IMG/VR virus record: IMGVR_UViG_3300048897_000022
Span: 1-39,357 of that record
Direction: 5' to 3' (one strand)
DNA from: a virus
Taxonomy: Duplodnaviria > Caudoviricetes
DNA length: 39,357 nucleotides
Part shown: piece after piece, positions 15,277 to 27,347 of the stretch
Position numbering within the stretch: position 1 is the first letter of the stretch
How the letters are laid out: every line of letters begins with the position of its first letter
Made by a program: the position numbers and the translations under genes
Notes under the pieces: model-generated
What the model saw: only the letters and a program-made list of their open reading frames with translations
What the model was told of the DNA's origin: nothing
Database searches by the model: none

Positions 15277-15606
15277 TTAGTTGTCGGATTTGCTGCCGAG
15301 CATCTGCATGCTTTCGGCAATGATGTCGGTGGCGTACTTTTCGATGCCGTCCTTGTCGGTGTACTTGCGCGTCTGCAAGCGTCCTTCCACATAGACGCTG
15401 TGGCCCTTCTTTAGGTACTGACTGACAATCTCAGCCAGCTTGCCAAAGAAGCTGATGCGATGCCATTCTGTAACTTGGTCCCGGTCTTTTGGTTTATAGC
15501 TAGTTGCCACTGAAATATTGGCAATAGCATCGCCAGAAGCCTGATAACGGATTTCAGGATCACGCCCCAACGATCCGACAATAATCACTTTATTTACTGA
15601 TGCCAT
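15277..15606 (-). CDS. ssb: Single-stranded DNA-binding protein (OB fold only, no acidic tail)
   Basis: [17 protein letters not shown]...TEWHRI...[12 protein letters not shown]. Confidence 0.95.
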
Positions 15607-16057
15607 TTCTTCTTACTCCCTCTTTTCGTGCGATATATCCGGCAGTTTGCCGCTTGATTCCAAAGTCTTTTGCGATGGACGCGTACTTTTCACCTAACTG
15701 TGCGCGTCGAATGACTTCAGCCCTTTCTTGATCTGTCAATTTTGAATGCGGCAGCATACTCCCCTTGGCTTGCCTTCCTTTTGAGACTGCGTCATCCATA
15801 TTTTCCTGGCGACTACCAACAAAAAGATGTGCTGGGTTGACACATTTCCGGTTGTCACATTTATGGCAAACATCAAGCCCATCAGGGATAGGCCCAATAA
15901 AGGATGCATATGAAAGGCGATGTGCGTACTGCGAACGGCGCTGAAAGTTAATTCGGGCATATCCATTGGCCTGCACACAACCGGACCATTCCCAGCAGCC
16001 AGTTTTATCAATGATAGAGACGCTAGCCTTGATTCTTTGTTGAGCAATTTCCATCAT
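15590..16057 (-). CDS. HNH endonuclease with C-terminal HTH
   Basis: GCWEW...AHRLSY...[16 protein letters not shown]...N. Confidence 0.9.
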
Positions 16058-17065: not shown

Positions 17066-17176
17066 ATAAAAAAGGCTTCGTGAAACCCTCTCCCATTGCT
17101 GGGTTGGACTAACGGATTGGTATCCGCCAGAGGGTTCACGAAGCCTTACCAAGTTTTCCCGGAGTCCAAGCCGGAC
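17066..17176 (-). ncRNA. c4/CI-like antisense/attenuator RNA element (leftward operon)
   Basis: 19-bp stem 17072-17091/17129-17147 enclosing two hairpins; U6 tail; unpaired segments complementary to upstream sites at 17147-17152 and 17163-17169. Confidence 0.7.
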
Positions 17177-17271
17177 AATCAATATATCAAGTGCCGAGCT
17201 ACTGTAGCAAGCACTTTATGCGCTGGCACTTACGCGGCCAGCTTACGCCCGGCACTGTGGAGCCTACCGGG

Positions 17272-18226: not shown

Positions 18227-18709
18227 TTAGATTCCTACTGGGTTCAATACTGCGAATTCGCCAAAGTGCTTGATCGCTGCCTTGTTGTAAGCATGCGCCG
18301 CTTCGTCCACGGTGTCATGCGTGCCCAGGTCGTAGCGCTCGCCGTCGAACGTGATGCGCGCCTGAAATTTACCGGAGCGATGGGCGCGCACTCCCTTGGC
18401 CTGGATAGGCTTGCCTTCCATCCCTTTACGATTCCAGTTGTTCTGTTGATTGGTCGCTGGGCGCAGATTCTCGATGCGGTTGTTATCCCGTTTGCCGTCG
18501 CGATGGTCGATGCGCACTCGCGGCAATTCCCCGTGCACGTAAAGCCATGCCATATGATGCGCGAAGAATCGTCGTTCGCCCACCATCACGTACACGTAGC
18601 CTTTCACGCTTGGGTGGCCGACCTCCTGCCCATGTCGGCCTGTGAATACGCCCGTTTCCGGGTCGTATTCCAGGTGATGCATCAGTTCTTTTTGAGTGAT
18701 CGTGTTCAT
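18227..18709 (-). CDS. HNH endonuclease with AP2 domain
   Basis: YDPETGVF...IDHRDGKRDNNRIENLR...N; KGV...FQARI...LG...AAHAYNKAAIKHFGEFA. Confidence 0.9.
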   Translation of the reverse strand: MNTITQKELMHHLEYDPETGVFTGRHGQEVGHPSVKGYVYVMVGERRFFAHHMAWLYVHGELPRVRIDHRDGKRDNNRIENLRPATNQQNNWNRKGMEGKPIQAKGVRAHRSGKFQARITFDGERYDLGTHDTVDEAAHAYNKAAIKHFGEFAVLNPVGI

Positions 18710-18965: not shown

Positions 18966-18973
18966 CGCAAGTT

Positions 18974-19114
18974 TTAGGCTACGCTGAACAGCAGCATGGT
19001 CACGGAACGGCGGATTACTTCGTCGCCGTTAGCGATTGCGGCGGTGACTTCTGCGGCGGTCGTCTTAGCCAGCTCAGCGTAAGTTTCGATTGCCAGTTTC
19101 AATGCTGCATCCAT
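18974..19114 (-). CDS. 46-aa first gene of the leftward operon (not in ORF track)
   Basis: AAGGGA RBS; MDAALKLAIETYAELAKTTAAEV... Confidence 0.6.
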   Translation of the reverse strand: MDAALKLAIETYAELAKTTAAEVTAAIANGDEVIRRSVTMLLFSVA

Positions 19115-19164
19115 TTTGATTCCCTTTCATTCCCGCCGCGCTGAATTGCGCTGCCATGTAGAGA

Positions 19165-19193
19165 ACTATACTCCTGTGCTTTTTGCGAGTCAA
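19165..19193 (-). promoter_or_regulatory. Leftward early promoter (PL-like)
   Basis: TTGACT (19193-19188), 17 nt spacer, TATAGT (19170-19165). Confidence 0.85.
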
Positions 19194-19237
19194 CCAATTT
19201 ATGTAAAAATTTCTTCATGATAGGTTGAATAAAGTTC

Positions 19238-19266
19238 TTGCTCAATTCATCCGAGTAGGTTAATCT
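19238..19266 (+). promoter_or_regulatory. Rightward early promoter (PR-like)
   Basis: TTGCTC, 17 nt spacer, TAATCT, upstream of the Cro-like gene. Confidence 0.6.
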
Positions 19267-19299
19267 ACCAATACCAACTCACCAACCGAAAGGAAAGAC

Positions 19300-19527
19300 A
19301 TGGCAACGAAACAGGAAATCGATATCCGCGCAGAAGTCCGTGCGCATATCGCAAGGAAGTACAAGACACAGAGCGCAGCTGCTAAGGCGTGGGGCTATTC
19401 CAACGCCTATGTTTCTGCTGTGCTTTGCGGTAAAAAGATGATGCCTGATGTAATGGCAAACGAGGCCGGCTATGAGCTTGTTCAGGCCGCCGCTGAATGG
19501 CATAAGATTAAAAAGGTGACGAAATGA
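19300..19527 (+). CDS. Cro-like HTH regulator
   Basis: TQSAAAKAWGYSNAYVSAVLCG XRE-type HTH; first rightward gene. Confidence 0.75.
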   Translation: MATKQEIDIRAEVRAHIARKYKTQSAAAKAWGYSNAYVSAVLCGKKMMPDVMANEAGYELVQAAAEWHKIKKVTK

Positions 19528-20471: not shown

Positions 20472-20657
20472 ATGCTTGACTCAACCGACATCACCGCATT
20501 GCAAGCACTGCCGGCCGACATCCCGCGCACGCTGGTCGCCATCAGCGAAGACCCGCGCGCCGCTGAACTGGTTGCCCTGTTCAACAAAGCCGACGAACGC
20601 GGCAAGCACTGCATGATCGCTATGGCGCGCTGCATGCCCTGCATGAGGGGTGGCTGA
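20472..20657 (+). CDS. Hypothetical protein
   Basis: AGGAG RBS. Confidence 0.6.
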   Translation: MLDSTDITALQALPADIPRTLVAISEDPRAAELVALFNKADERGKHCMIAMARCMPCMRGG

Positions 20658-21064
20658 TGCTGGCTCGCAAAAAGCCCCTGGCCAGGTCCGGCTTCAAGCC
20701 CGCAGTATTCGGCGCCGTGCGCGCAACTGGCAAGCTAAGGTCGAAGCGGATGAAGTCGGCCAGCCAGAAGATGACGCCAATTCGGAAGAGCGCCAAGGGT
20801 GAGGAATGCACGCTGCGTATCCCTGGCGTATGCAACGGAGACAACAGCACTGTGGTTTGGTGTCACAGCAACAATATCCGAGACGGGAAAGGCATGGGCC
20901 TCAAGTCGCGCGATGAAGAGGGCTGCTATGGCTGTTCATCTTGCCATGCATGGATTGATGGTGGTTATGTAAAGGATGGTCCAAGGCATTGGATGGAGCA
21001 ATATTTTGACTTAGCACGCGCTGAAAGCCAAGCAATTCTAAAACGAAAAGGACTTATGAAATGA
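20657..21064 (+). CDS. DUF1364/YbcO-like zinc-binding nuclease-fold protein
   Basis: SAKGEECTLRIPGVCNGD.STVVWCH...KGMGLK...GCSSCH. Confidence 0.85.
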   Translation: MLARKKPLARSGFKPAVFGAVRATGKLRSKRMKSASQKMTPIRKSAKGEECTLRIPGVCNGDNSTVVWCHSNNIRDGKGMGLKSRDEEGCYGCSSCHAWIDGGYVKDGPRHWMEQYFDLARAESQAILKRKGLMK

Positions 21065-21354: not shown

Positions 21355-21668
21355 GAGCCGCAAAAATAGACGCCAACCAGCCTGAAATCGTCCAGGCGCT
21401 GCGCAAAGCCGGTGCCAGCGTCCAACCCTTGCACACGGTCGGATGCGGCGTCCCTGACCTGCTATGCGGCCTTCCTGGCGTGTCATTTCTGGTCGAGGTG
21501 AAAGACGGTGCAAAGCCGCCCAGCGCGCAGAAGCTGACGCCAGATCAGGAAAAGTGGCATGCCGCCTGGAAGGGTCCAGTATTCATCGTGCGCGATGTTG
21601 CGCAAGCGCTACACCTTTTGGCTGATATCAAAGCCAACCAACTATTGAAGGAAATTTCCAAGTGGTGA
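21351..21668 (+). CDS. VRR-NUC-like PD-(D/E)xK nuclease
   Basis: DANQPEIV...GVPDLL...LVEVK...LTPDQEKW. Confidence 0.8.
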   Translation: MRAAKIDANQPEIVQALRKAGASVQPLHTVGCGVPDLLCGLPGVSFLVEVKDGAKPPSAQKLTPDQEKWHAAWKGPVFIVRDVAQALHLLADIKANQLLKEISKW

Positions 21669-22138
21669 TCGCAAAGAAAATTTCATATGAGGAGGTATCT
21701 AAGGTCTTCTCATATGACCCAGAAACTGGGAATCTTATTTGGATAAAAAATTTCCACTCTCCGCGAATAGGAACGGTGGCAGGAACCAAAGACTGGCGTG
21801 GATACGTCTATGTATCTTGGGGAAGAAAGCGATATCACGCGGCTAGAATCATATGGGTGCTAGTCCATGGCTCTATTGATGACTCTCTTGTTATTGACCA
21901 TATAAATAGGAACCCATCAGATAATCGGATATCAAATCTTAGGCTTGTTACGCAAGCAATAAATGTGAGCAACAGGAGTGGTAGGAGATCATCTGGGTAT
22001 AGGCGTGATCCTAAATTTTATACGAAGCATCGGAGCGGTAAATTTCAGGTGCTTGTGAAAGGGAAATACATTGGTCTGGTTGACTCTGAGGATGAGGCCA
22101 AACTGTTGGTAAATAAAACTTTGGAGCAAATGCCATGA
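21662..22138 (+). CDS. HNH endonuclease
   Basis: YDPETG...IDHINRNPSDNRISNLR...N; AT-richer. Confidence 0.9.
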   Translation: MVIAKKISYEEVSKVFSYDPETGNLIWIKNFHSPRIGTVAGTKDWRGYVYVSWGRKRYHAARIIWVLVHGSIDDSLVIDHINRNPSDNRISNLRLVTQAINVSNRSGRRSSGYRRDPKFYTKHRSGKFQVLVKGKYIGLVDSEDEAKLLVNKTLEQMP

Positions 22139-22260: not shown

Positions 22261-22913
22261 ATCCTGTGATTATTGGCGATGCCACGCTGTACCTAGGCGA
22301 CTGTGCCGAAATCCTGCCGGCATTGAAAGCTGACGCAATTTGCAGCGATCCACCGTATGGATTAGGCGACAAGATGACAGGTGGAACAAAGCTTTTTCAG
22401 ACTGGTGAGGGCGGTATGCAAACTCTTGGCGCATGGGATGCGCAGCCGGTACCTGGATTGCTGGAAATGTTGCAGCCAGTTGCGCCCATTTTGATGCTAT
22501 GGGGCGGGAATTATTATTCGGTACCGGCCTCGCGTGGATGGCTGGTATGGGTCAAGATTAACGGCCTGCAGACTATGGCAAGCGTTGAGCTCTGCTGGAC
22601 GAATATCGACATGAACAGTAAGCATTTCCTTCATCCTGTAAATGGATGGCAGCGAGATCATCCAACTCAAAAACCGGTCGACCTGATGCACTGGTGCCTA
22701 TCATTTATTCCAAAGGCGGAGACGATTCTCGACCCATTCATGGGAAGTGGAACTACGGGCGTGGCGGCTGTCATGTCTGGCAGGAAGTTTATCGGCATCG
22801 AGCGCAAGGAAAAGTATTTTGATGCTGCCTGCAAGCGTATCGAACGCGCCATCGCTCAGGGCCAACTTTTCGCACCTGAACCCATCAAACAAGTACAGGA
22901 GTCCCTACTATGA
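22257..22913 (+). CDS. Orphan DNA amino-methyltransferase (N6A/N4C, beta class)
   Basis: DPPY before HPTQKP and LDPFMGSGTTG; GTG start with AGGAGG RBS. Confidence 0.9.
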   Translation: MNPVIIGDATLYLGDCAEILPALKADAICSDPPYGLGDKMTGGTKLFQTGEGGMQTLGAWDAQPVPGLLEMLQPVAPILMLWGGNYYSVPASRGWLVWVKINGLQTMASVELCWTNIDMNSKHFLHPVNGWQRDHPTQKPVDLMHWCLSFIPKAETILDPFMGSGTTGVAAVMSGRKFIGIERKEKYFDAACKRIERAIAQGQLFAPEPIKQVQESLL

Positions 22914-23068
22914 TGCACTCATACGAAAACCGCACCTGGCGCACCGAGCGGCGCCGCGCATGGCCCCGCATCCTCGGCTGGGTCGTGGCTGTCATTCCGT
23001 TCATTCTGTTGATGGCAGCAGTTTTTTACGGCGAATGGTTCATGGAGTACTTGCGGAAGCTGCAATGA
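22910..23068 (+). CDS. 52-aa single-TM peptide
   Basis: ATGA overlap; ILGWVVAVIPFILLMAAVFY. Confidence 0.55.
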   Translation: MMHSYENRTWRTERRRAWPRILGWVVAVIPFILLMAAVFYGEWFMEYLRKLQ

Positions 23069-23084
23069 TGGACTAATATGCACG

Positions 23085-23239
23085 CATCAGTACCGGCAAG
23101 TGCTGATGACGAAGAAACATTGACAGTGTAGTAGCCCAGAATTTTTAGGAGTGCCGACAAAATCGGTTGCGCGTGTTCACTGTCCGCGTGTAACCGAGGC
23201 TTGCCGGCCCGGCACCCCTAAGTGTTCTGGGCTTTTTTT
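23085..23239 (+). ncRNA. c4/CI-like antisense/attenuator RNA element (rightward operon)
   Basis: About 100-nt interrupted stem 23133-23233 plus T7; loop CACTGTC and bulge CTTGCCGG complementary to upstream GACAGTG and CCGGCAAG. Confidence 0.75.
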
Positions 23240-23491
23240 CGTCTGTACTTGCTGTGCTGCATGCTCCGCACTTCCCGAGGGAGCAGCTACGCGAACAAGG
23301 TAGTGGGTGGCCCAGTTCATCGGGTTGGCTGAAAGGCCGGGGTTTGTTCAGGGGTATGTGTCCGTGGCTCGTCTCACAGGCAGTACCAAGCTTCTTTACC
23401 CTTGGGGGGTATGGGGGGCTTTGGGGATCGGAGCCGGGTCTGAACTCTAGGCAATAACGAAAAGCAGTTAAATGTAGATAAGAGGAATTTA

Positions 23492-23722
23492 ATGAATCTT
23501 AAAGAATACTGGCGTCAGAACTTCCACTTGAGCGGTTACGGGATAACGAAAATCGCTTGCCACGCTATCGGCATGAATTGGCCGCCGCAAAAAGGATGGC
23601 TAAAGCACAAAGGCCACATCAAAATGACGCCGGAATTGATCGAAATTTTCGAGCGTCATATTCCTGAAGACGTATTGCGCGACCGCAAAGACAAGGCATC
23701 GAAAGGGATCAAATGGAACTGA
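23492..23722 (+). CDS. Hypothetical protein
   Basis: GAGG RBS; WPPQKGWL motif. Confidence 0.65.
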   Translation: MNLKEYWRQNFHLSGYGITKIACHAIGMNWPPQKGWLKHKGHIKMTPELIEIFERHIPEDVLRDRKDKASKGIKWN

Positions 23723-24396
23723 CGATTTCTGCACAACAGAAGACCATGACAAGCCGCGAGATTGCGGATTTGGTCGAGTCCCGGCACGCAGATGTGTGCA
23801 TCTGCATTGAGCGCCTGATGGCGACTGGCGCGATTCAGGGGTATGCGGCAATGCCGTACACCCATCCTCAGAATGGCCAGCAGTACCGCGAATACCATAT
23901 CGGGCAGCGTGACAGCTATGTGATCGTTGCTCAGCTTTCGCCGCAGTTCACTGCGCGCCTTGTAGATCGCTGGCAAGAACTTGAGCAGGCCGCAAGCAAG
24001 CCGCGCGAACTGACCCGCATGGAGTTAATCCAGATCGCCATGGATGCGGAGAAGGAGAATATCCAACTGCGCGCTGACTTGGCCATGGCGGCGCCGGCTG
24101 TGGAGTTCGTTGGCCGTTACGTCGAAAGCGAAACCGGCAGCATGGGCTTTCGCCAGGTCTGCAAGCTGCTGAAAGCCAAGGAGCCGGAATTCCGCGCCTT
24201 CCTGCATGACAACCAGATCATGTACAAGCTTGGTGGCGAGTGGGTGCCCTACGCTGCGCACATCGACGCCGGCCGCTTTGAAGTGAAGACCGGGACTGCC
24301 AATGAACATGCTTACTCGCAATCGAAGTTCACGCCAAAGGGCGTCGAATGGATTGCCGGTGAGTGGGCCAAGCACCAGATCAAGGAGGTGGCATGA
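23713..24396 (+). CDS. Rha-N + ANT/KilAC antirepressor-like protein
   Basis: TMTSREIADLVESRH...FTARLVDRWQELE; C-terminal FRQVCKLL...KFTPKGVEWI. Confidence 0.85.
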   Translation: MELTISAQQKTMTSREIADLVESRHADVCICIERLMATGAIQGYAAMPYTHPQNGQQYREYHIGQRDSYVIVAQLSPQFTARLVDRWQELEQAASKPRELTRMELIQIAMDAEKENIQLRADLAMAAPAVEFVGRYVESETGSMGFRQVCKLLKAKEPEFRAFLHDNQIMYKLGGEWVPYAAHIDAGRFEVKTGTANEHAYSQSKFTPKGVEWIAGEWAKHQIKEVA

Positions 24397-24701
24397 GAGT
24401 CCTTCCTGACTGGGTCCCGGCCGAAGCCTGGGACGGCTACGTAGACATGCGCAAGAAGATCCGGAAGCCGATGACCGATCGCGCAATCTCTCTGGCGGTG
24501 AATACGCTGACGAAGCTGCGCGACGAAGGCTACGAGCCTGGCGCGGTGTTGGATCAGTCGGTGATGAACTCTTGGCAGGGCCTGTTCCCAATCCAAGAAG
24601 ACCGCCGCACTCAGCGCGCCCAATCGGTAAAACTTAGCCCCCTGAGTAAGACCGGCCAAGCGACCGCCAATAACCTGCTGGCATGGCTGGAGGAAGCATG
24701 A
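24393..24701 (+). CDS. Replication-initiator C-terminal-domain-only protein
   Basis: LPDWVPAEAW..YVDMRKKI.KPMT...VLDQSVMNSWQGLF resembles the C-domain of lambdoid initiators; own AAGGAGG RBS. Confidence 0.65.
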   Translation: MRVLPDWVPAEAWDGYVDMRKKIRKPMTDRAISLAVNTLTKLRDEGYEPGAVLDQSVMNSWQGLFPIQEDRRTQRAQSVKLSPLSKTGQATANNLLAWLEEA

Positions 24702-24898
24702 AAGTTCGACAGGAATTCATTAATAAGTGGAATGATGACAGTGAGGCATGGTCGCATCTTAATGCGAACTTCATTGATAATCGTGGGCTAATTTCTCCTA
24801 AAGAAGGACATATACCTAGCGAGGAAGATATGGGCGCGATCATATATCTTTGCTATGAGTGGGATTATGGTTATGAGGGGCATAGTAATGCTGGATAG
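24698..24898 (+). CDS. Hypothetical protein (AT-richer insert)
   Basis: GGAGG RBS, ATGA overlap. Confidence 0.6.
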   Translation: MKVRQEFINKWNDDSEAWSHLNANFIDNRGLISPKEGHIPSEEDMGAIIYLCYEWDYGYEGHSNAG

Positions 24899-25490
24899 CC
24901 TGGAAGAAAAGCAGCGCTTCGCCTTGATGCTGACTGGCCTGTCCGAGTACTACCGCCAAGAGGTCAGCAAGGCCATGGCCGGCATCTACTGGGAGGGCCT
25001 AAAGCAGTACGATATCGGCGCCATCGAAAAGGCCGCACATGCCCACATGCAAAGCCCTGACGAGAATGGCCGCTGGTTTCCGAAGATCAGCGACCTGGCG
25101 AAGTATCTGGAAGGCAGCACGACCGATCAAGCCAGCCTGGCATGGTCGAAGGTGGACAGGGCGCTTCGATCCGTGGGCACCTATGCCGACGTCATCTTCG
25201 ACGACCCGATTATCCACTGCGTGCTGCAAGACATGGGCGGCTGGGTTCCGTTGGGCGACAAGACCACGGACGAGTGGCCATTCGTCGCCAAGGAGTTCCA
25301 GACACGCTACCGGGGCTACAGGATGCGGACCAGCGAAGTCACGCCACCGCGCCGCCTGACCGGAATGGCAAACCTGCACAACGCCGCCTCAGGCATGCCG
25401 CTGGAGCCGGCCAGACTGATCGGCAGCGAAGAAAAATGCTTGGACTGGCTGCAAATCACGGCTGGCAATAAGCCTTTGCAATTGAAGTAA
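24888..25490 (+). CDS. DUF6475-type putative helicase loader/inhibitor (lambda P position)
   Basis: N-terminal helical domain with FPKISD; AWSKV...G.YADVIFDDPIIH...MGGW. Confidence 0.65.
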   Translation: MLDSLEEKQRFALMLTGLSEYYRQEVSKAMAGIYWEGLKQYDIGAIEKAAHAHMQSPDENGRWFPKISDLAKYLEGSTTDQASLAWSKVDRALRSVGTYADVIFDDPIIHCVLQDMGGWVPLGDKTTDEWPFVAKEFQTRYRGYRMRTSEVTPPRRLTGMANLHNAASGMPLEPARLIGSEEKCLDWLQITAGNKPLQLK

Positions 25491-27185: not shown

Positions 27186-27263
27186 GCGGCGGTGTAACTC
27201 AATTGGTAGAGTCATGGAGCACAAATCCTTGGTTGCTGGTTCGAATCCAGCCGCGGCCGCCCA
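27186..27263 (+). tRNA. Aberrant tRNA-like gene (Cys-like body, ACA at the anticodon position); possible pseudo-tRNA
   Basis: D-arm actc/gagt and T-arm gctgg-TTCGAAT-ccagc intact; anticodon loop GC-ACA-AA; mismatched acceptor. Confidence 0.6.
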
Positions 27264-27271
27264 GTTTCAAA

Positions 27272-27347
27272 TGTGATGTAGCTCAGACGGTAGAGCGCCG
27301 GATTGTTAATCCGGTGGTCCCTGGTTCGATCCCAGGCTTCACAGCCA
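27272..27347 (+). tRNA. tRNA-Asn(GTT)
   Basis: 76-nt cloverleaf; ccgga-TTGTTAA-tccgg; TTCGATC loop; G discriminator plus CCA. Confidence 0.93.

Follow-up and report, generated by a model that had tools for sequence, protein, structure and literature searches.

The window analysed here covers the whole of a virus record (39,357 bases) and has direct terminal repeats. It contains P22-like head and ejection genes, a leftward arm with Erf, SSB, Gam and Lar, and a rightward arm with NinB, a methyltransferase, a Rha/ANT antirepressor, an O-like initiator and DUF6475. Genes for a tyrosine integrase, a resolvase, an S24-type repressor and ParA were all searched for in the window and none was found. 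Ralstonia phages are among its nearest capsid matches; together with the Betaproteobacteria-1 RNA found in relatives (see below), these matches point to a betaproteobacterial host. The 39-kb genome has four HNH endonuclease genes (15590-16057, 18227-18709, 20657-21064 and 21662-22138). A divergent region at 18970-19300 has two minus-strand promoter-like sites with a Cro-like HTH gene (19300-19527) beside it; no CI-type repressor was found there. Rfam models matched two tRNAs in the window, and the two tRNA-like genes (27188-27344) lie directly 5′ of the terminase gene, the first with a lower score (45 bits).

The element that we describe lies on the plus strand ahead of the replication genes. 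It begins with hairpin 1 (23085-23108; 95.5% mean identity among 12 homologs), whose loop holds the target b1 (23093-23100). An A-rich linker (23108-23121) leads to the second target, a1 (23122-23128), a hypervariable word 4-5 nt 5′ of the base of a long branched stem, or rod (23133-23233). The rod is built of a basal terminator-like stem, a stalk and an apical hairpin. It contains an invariant ACAAAA bulge (23157-23162), the word a′ (CACTGTC, 23178-23184) at the apex and the word b′ (CTTGCCGG, 23200-23207) in a minor hairpin or bulge. A T7 run (23233-23239; 6-7 T in 12/12 homologs) stands right behind the G+C-rich basal stem, forming a predicted intrinsic terminator. The strand that follows (23240-23255) is complementary to b1, the 3′ arm of hairpin 1 and the linker (duplex −24.8 kcal/mol) and carries CGTCTGTACT in all 12 homologs. 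Including the end of the T-run, the conserved complementary strand spans 23235-23255 and faces 23094-23117; positions 23108-23117 of the linker can pair with the T-run plus CGTC once the latter has been read through.

The predicted fold of the element has a free energy of −78.1 kcal/mol (z −6.63), and none of 200 shuffles was as stable. When the upstream 47-nt segment was shuffled 200,000 times, the two complements co-occurred in only 4 shuffles. The initial annotation had located hairpin 1, b1, a1, the two loop words and the T7 run at the positions given above, and all of these were confirmed. It had also placed both complements exactly in unpaired parts of the rod, which stands except for b′: in the ensemble fold only the four central bases of b′ are open, while its ends form a small hairpin. 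The two end bases of b1 likewise close hairpin 1. The gcgcg/cgcgt register that it gave for the apical stem was off by two bases, and the predicted stem pairs 23163-23175 with 23185-23197. The promoter and the strand past the T-run had both been missed.

The predicted promoter is of the sigma70 type (TTGCGG-17-TAATAT, 23051-23079, plus strand), with a predicted start at about 23086. In the window it matches only 7 of 12 consensus bases and was absent from a strict promoter scan. Nevertheless, 11 of the 12 homologs have TTG...xAxxxT with 17-18 nt spacing, ending 6-7 nt 5′ of hairpin 1, an arrangement with a background rate of 0.2-1.4% of positions, and the DNA upstream of the promoter is otherwise unrelated among homologs. 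The strict scan found no minus-strand consensus promoter near the element, although it missed the plus-strand one too. A terminator-like hairpin with T6 (23006-23027) lies within a 54-aa ORF immediately 5′ of the promoter and could insulate the switch against upstream transcription. The 17-codon ORF (23078-23131, plus strand), whose coordinates had been given correctly, was proposed to couple translation to the switch. Three of the 12 homologs have its ATG, a codon that overlaps the −10 box and precedes the predicted start. Because the conserved promoter would start the RNA at hairpin 1, the ORF is not supported and is probably not functional; a conserved translatable ORF inside the transcript, as expected of a leader-peptide attenuator, was not found at the element.

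To collect homologs, we combined protein and pattern scans, which gave 20 loci with 12 distinct copies including the window. A 16-mer scan returned 33 loci, 5 of them homologs. A word-based pattern scan returned 14 loci, none homologous, and a loose pattern scan returned 119 loci with no new homolog among them. The fold is kept throughout the 12 close homologs. Mean identity among them is 100% in b1 and b′, 99% in the T-run plus CGTCTGTACT and 88-92% in the lower stems, but 47% in a1 and 45% in a′, which are the least conserved part of the element. Nine versions of the a1/a′ words occur among the 12 copies, each complementary to its own partner. The a1:a′ duplex averages −11.8 kcal/mol for own partners compared with −5.6 for others; own pairing was best or tied in 9 of 12 rows, and none of 100,000 permutations reached the own-partner mean, a result that is not a true probability because the sequences are related. 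A covariance model search added two distinct members (L217 and L218), and in these more distant sequences b1:b′ is compensated as well. We fitted an alignment of the 14 sequences to this model; in it, 96.6% of cells are paired, and both partners have changed in 19 of the 42 model pairs. Among rods of this class (class I), the plus strand folds better than the minus strand in 11 of 11.

Since words and stems change in a compensatory manner across homologs, we conclude that the pairings are under selection. Covariation thus gives strong support to both a1:a′ and b1:b′ and bears out the earlier proposal of an RNA switch with two nested target/anti-target pairings in a c4/CI-like layout. The structure of the element is real, and in all likelihood the element is functional. 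Judged from these alignments, the a word looks diversified rather than drifting. Four DNA sequencing runs yielded contig pieces only, one of them with changes clustered at a1 and a′; among the sequencing runs listed, no RNA run carried the element. Blastn of the element against cultured phages gave no match, nor did a class III query, and a class II query gave only 30-nt spanin matches that we judged to be chance. In prokaryotic genomes, neither the RNA pattern nor the DUF6475 protein was matched by exact-word searches, which are weak evidence of absence.

Downstream of the element in the window come an interchangeable non-coding leader of 236 nt (23256-23491), a 76-aa ORF (23492-23722) that overlaps the start of the antirepressor gene, the Rha/ANT (KilAC) antirepressor-family gene itself (23713-24396; PF09669, PF03374; phrog_63), the O-like replication initiator (24393-24701; phrog_678, E 1.9e-20) and DUF6475 (24855-25490), all on the plus strand. 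DUF6475 occupies the position of a helicase loader, which suggests that role. The 76-aa ORF has no PHROG or Pfam match and is not conserved, its slot being taken by other ORFs in homologs. The switch had been placed upstream of antirepressor and replication genes. However, by ORF inspection, 5 of 12 homologs have no ant between the switch and the first replication gene, which leaves the antirepressor unsupported as the defining target. Replication genes lie 3′ of the switch in all nine loci long enough to reveal them; the first is O-like in eight loci, while in L116, a phage of 58.8 kb whose head module differs, it encodes a helicase-primase. The constant target of the switch is therefore the replication operon and not the antirepressor.

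The leader folds at −78 kcal/mol, and its slot is filled by at least four interchangeable types; the window's type is also found in L014 and L187. In many homologs the slot is taken by the Rfam Betaproteobacteria-1 RNA (RF02932), which lies directly 3′ of the switch in 7 of 11 homologous and 6 of 19 further loci (L001:2591-2717, L217:2980-3099, L213:2396-2517 and 10 more) and was not found in the window. It mostly begins about 30-45 nt past the T-run, 5′ of the replication genes. Rfam types it as an sRNA; from this position, it may act in cis within the read-through transcript. It is a module of its own, with no overlap with the switch.

To determine how far the design extends, we analysed the best 80 of 226 relatives confirmed by alignment of the O-like protein. 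Searching without regard to sequence for long stems that run into a T-run, we detected a rod in 23 of the 80, and one more (L209) was found by eye. The rod is present in 19 of the top 23 O-like relatives, and three of the other four have too little upstream DNA. Eighteen further distinct rods of the same design precede related initiators, many of them unrelated in sequence. They include two-site classes (L212, 213, 222, 235 and 277; L207, 208 and 220) and one-site rods (L211, 225, 226, 227 and 284); further classes exist, and the classes share little sequence. Across 29 distinct rods, exposed bases match the rod's own upstream targets over a mean of 12.2 nt, compared with 3.6 nt for those of others, and the own target is the row maximum in 23 of 29. 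A post-terminator complement to the upstream target is found in 24 of 29 rods (at most 4 of 300 shuffled upstream sequences were as good) and is weak or absent in the other five.

The design is also carried, before the O-like operon, by the cultured Erwinia phages PEp14 (L286:2120-2292), Stean (L332:10120-10292) and Pavtok (L333:300-472). These Pavtokvirus elements have three combinations of compensated words, with the b word of Pavtok being that of PEp14 and its a word that of Stean. The PEp14 element has no credible Rfam match. Among capsid-related phages, no switch was found in Firinga, RSK1, PfAn1 or MW202475 (0 of 4), nor in the stretches of Pocitis76 and Hali that were examined. Solano gave one ragged minus-strand match, which overlaps a CDS.

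The window contains a second, leftward switch of the same design (17074-17210, minus strand; promoter 17210-17181) ahead of Erf, SSB and Gam. Its targets are TTGGACT (17163-17169) and TTGGTA (about 17147-17152), and its rod (17074-17145) exposes TACCAA and AGTCCAA and ends in T6 (fold z −4.71; 0 of 200 shuffles as stable). Its target region gives an isrK score of 15.7 bits, which is below the cut-off of 50. A near-identical copy occurs in G011, and compensated versions occur in G020 and G022. Inspection by eye showed no post-terminator complement in the leftward switch of either the window or G003.

When whole or near-whole genomes were scanned (G008 and G018 up to their final 0.5-2.5 kb), 9 of 13 carried two or more switches (the window, G003, G011, G012, G015, G019, G020, G021 and G022). 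A single switch was seen in G002 (76% complete), G008, G009 and G018. In five control genomes without the element, the scan gave one G+C-rich match with a 6-nt complement and nothing else. In 7 of the 9 genomes, the second switch lies ahead of a gene for an annealing protein or an exonuclease. Sibling switches do not match each other, scoring 0-6 compared with 8-16 for own pairs, except that the window's right rod scores 10 against the left target (two 5-mers). G015 has three switches (L310:1579-1641, L310:7407-7484 and one on the minus strand of L312), of which the extra one precedes a 530-aa gene with no assigned function. The left switch of G011 is common with the window and its right switch is of a different class, indicating that switch modules reassort.

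To place the element among known systems, we compared it with phage and plasmid regulatory RNAs. The closest likeness is to P4 seqA/CI: both have a promoter, an upstream target and a structured RNA from the same transcript with matching exposed bases, both lie before replication genes, and RNA-controlled premature termination is the proposed output. P4 termination is Rho-dependent, and RNase P processes P4 CI. The CI RNA is described in PMC4825925 as processed from the primary transcript and as causing premature termination before the replication genes through pairing with seqA and seqC; the account in PMC3632133 presents the mechanism as unresolved. Unlike P4, the element has a T-run directly behind the rod, a post-terminator strand complementary to the target, a second target that is single-stranded rather than in a second hairpin, no downstream seqC and usually two orthogonal copies per genome.

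In Rfam searches, nothing matched the locus (22600-23800) with E up to 10, so that the proposed kinship with the C4/CI family found no support in cmscan; C4, c4-2 (described in the PMC5737381 supplement), c4-a1b1 and isrK were all without a match. RF01695 was absent from 5 genomes with E up to 1 and from the 11 homologous and 19 further loci, and C4 and isrK were absent from the 19 further loci at the curated cut-off. As in C4/CI RNAs, two exposed segments are complementary to upstream targets in the same transcript; the second, downstream target over a ribosome-binding region was not found. No a2, b2 or seqC target occurs within up to 700 nt downstream in any of the 12 homologs, where the best complement to a member's own loops is 4-7 nt, no better than to the loops of other members (12/12). 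The suggested likeness to P1 c4 control of icd-ant is therefore not supported in its mechanism, with no downstream target copy in 12 homologs and the first ORF 250 nt away. Without a model match, a downstream target or a second target hairpin, the element is not a C4 member; it would work like P4 seqA/CI without being a member and fits no catalogued RNA family. No description of it was found in the literature searched, a search that mostly covered papers outside subscription.

Several other systems share single features with the element. P1/P7 c4, which blocks translation at the ribosome-binding region of ant mRNA according to PMC12197685, shares two-site loop pairing, a specificity defined by words (heteroimmunity) that the hypervariable words of the element no more than suggest, and, in some element members, a downstream antirepressor gene; its ribosome-binding target was not found downstream of the element, for which ant is dispensable. 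The c4-a1b1 motif as described in PMC2864571 has a −10 box about 7 nt before its first hairpin and a loop that often holds GCAA, as b1 does. The element shares with seqA, c4-a1b1 and IsrK this placement of the −10 box before a hairpin with a loop target. However, c4-a1b1 has two hairpins, and the second, 4-bp hairpin with a 9-nt loop (CGGG...CCCG type) is not conserved in element homologs. From their accession numbers, rows of the c4-a1b1 alignment presumably include P1, P4 and N15. IsrK of Gifsy-1 (RF01394), in the account of PMC4825925, resembles the element in having two alternative folds, a small ORF that overlaps an antirepressor-family gene downstream, and a single promoter for both a short and a read-through isoform. 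It differs in acting in trans to activate translation and in having a terminator of its own, and the element locus gives no isrK match.

Antisense RNAs drive the attenuation of plasmid rep genes in pIP501 (RNAIII) and pT181 (RNAI). As proposed for the element, pairing between RNA loops determines whether transcription stops ahead of a replication initiator, and loop words would define incompatibility. Their RNAs come from the opposite strand, whereas the inhibitor of the element would come from the same strand, with complementarity kept by compensatory change. This same-strand covariation makes a counter-transcribed antisense RNA unnecessary for the element.

The element is probably a self-regulating transcription attenuator that gates the replication operon, in which pairing in cis would block the terminator stem and RNA already made would block that pairing in trans. 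Transcription would begin at hairpin 1, from the predicted promoter. While the RNA is being made, a1 would pair with a′ and b1 with b′; the pairing itself is shown by covariation and the timing is presumed. From the geometry, cis pairing would exclude the basal terminator stem, since 4-5 nt separate the end of a1 from the base of a stem about 34 bp tall, and the first transcripts would read into the replication genes. After read-through, the strand past the T-run would pair with b1 and the linker, freeing a′ and b′ on the rod. By analogy with P4 CI, the freed rod would then act in trans, occupying a1 and b1 on later transcripts as they emerge, so that their terminator could form. The outcome would be negative feedback on the replication genes, and an incoming phage with the same words would be shut off. 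New words would escape this shut-off, which would explain why the words are hypervariable. The second switch, with different words, would act likewise on the recombination arm.

Some of these steps can be compared with the predicted structures. In the window, the 5 nt (about 30 Å) between the a1 end and the rod base compare with 34 pairs (about 95 Å) enclosing a′. By a rough measure (6 Å per nt, 2.8 Å per bp), the reach of the spacer is shorter than the stem height in 20 of 29 rods; the nine that failed are five one-site rods, L206, L221 and two in which b was picked instead of a. In stepwise folding, a1:a′ was best at 23185, b1:b′ at 23210 and the rod from 23222. At equilibrium, in a model that leaves out pseudoknots, the terminator fold wins by about 31 kcal/mol (−72.7 versus −41.7), so that read-through would depend on a kinetic trap or on a protein. 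The main doubts concern any action in trans and its direction, and the terminated RNA could be neutralised by its own a1 and b1 unless it is processed.

Other explanations can account for part of these data. A kinetic attenuator acting in cis only, in which the pairings set a fixed read-through or answer a phage protein or the elongation rate, would need no trans RNA. A single molecule offers all of its pairings, stepwise folding passes through the cis pairings, and no downstream target was found. We consider it rather unlikely because it leaves unexplained both the fully compensated swaps of 7-8 nt words inside stems that are 88-100% conserved and the presence of two orthogonal switches per genome. 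The opposite direction of trans action, in which the terminated RNA, or a released 5′ piece comprising hairpin 1 and a1, promotes read-through of nascent transcripts and the replication genes come on once RNA accumulates, has a precedent in IsrK, a seqA homolog that activates its own read-through transcript in trans in the description of PMC4825925. It also agrees with a default fold that is the terminator. However, no terminator follows a1 to release a 5′ piece, unlinked a1/b1 RNA on the loops would not be expected to strain the basal stem, and the element has no ribosome-binding site, making this direction unlikely.

It is more improbable that the T-run is simply the constitutive end of an sRNA gene. 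Here the upstream matches would serve to fold, mask or process an RNA with targets elsewhere, and the replication genes would depend on another promoter or on protein antitermination. The promoter, the stable fold and the T-run do delimit a 155-nt RNA, with the first ORF 250 nt beyond. Nevertheless, neither strand of the genome has a second copy of the b-then-a word pair, a target in the host would not vary in step with a1, and the conserved complementary strand past the terminator implies that read-through matters. The coupling of attenuation to a ribosome on the 17-codon ORF seems very improbable. The ORF is intact in the window and L001, covers b1 and a1, and could be included in a transcript from further upstream; against this, the nine homologs without the ATG are joined by variable stop positions, and the ORF in L194 extends past a1.

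No tyrosine integrase was found in 17 element-bearing records compared with 5 of 17 others (Fisher p 0.044), and no S24 repressor in 19 element-bearing records compared with 4 of 17 others (Fisher p 0.040). We treat this depletion as no more than suggestive, given unmatched controls and records that are related to one another, with one element common to both members in each of two pairs. Integrases are annotated in PEp14 and Stean, which rules out the idea that the switch always replaces repressor and integrase; PEp14 and Pavtok are treated as temperate in PMC7317114. A phage-plasmid reading was not supported, with ParA and resolvase in 0 of 20 each and initiator matches in plasmids only distant.

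To our knowledge, the systems in which phage immunity is based on RNA are few and enterobacterial, namely P1, P4, N15 and Gifsy-1. The element packs a promoter, targets, anti-targets and an intrinsic-type terminator into one 170-nt unit and is accompanied by dozens of natural, mutually orthogonal word sets. These sets make the mechanism directly testable in a purified transcription reaction, and the three cultured phages provide a live system. As a tentative extension that we regard as possible but doubtful, widespread, uncatalogued same-strand lock-and-key RNA attenuators may be the main early control in phages without recognisable repressor, integrase or partition genes. Two orthogonal switches would then gate the replication and recombination arms separately, and rapidly swapped words might delimit exclusion groups based on RNA alone or maintain a carrier state without integration. 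If the proposed mechanism is right, the set would be a natural library of orthogonal transcriptional repressors, and phages without recognisable lysogeny genes would control replication and exclude their kin by RNA alone.
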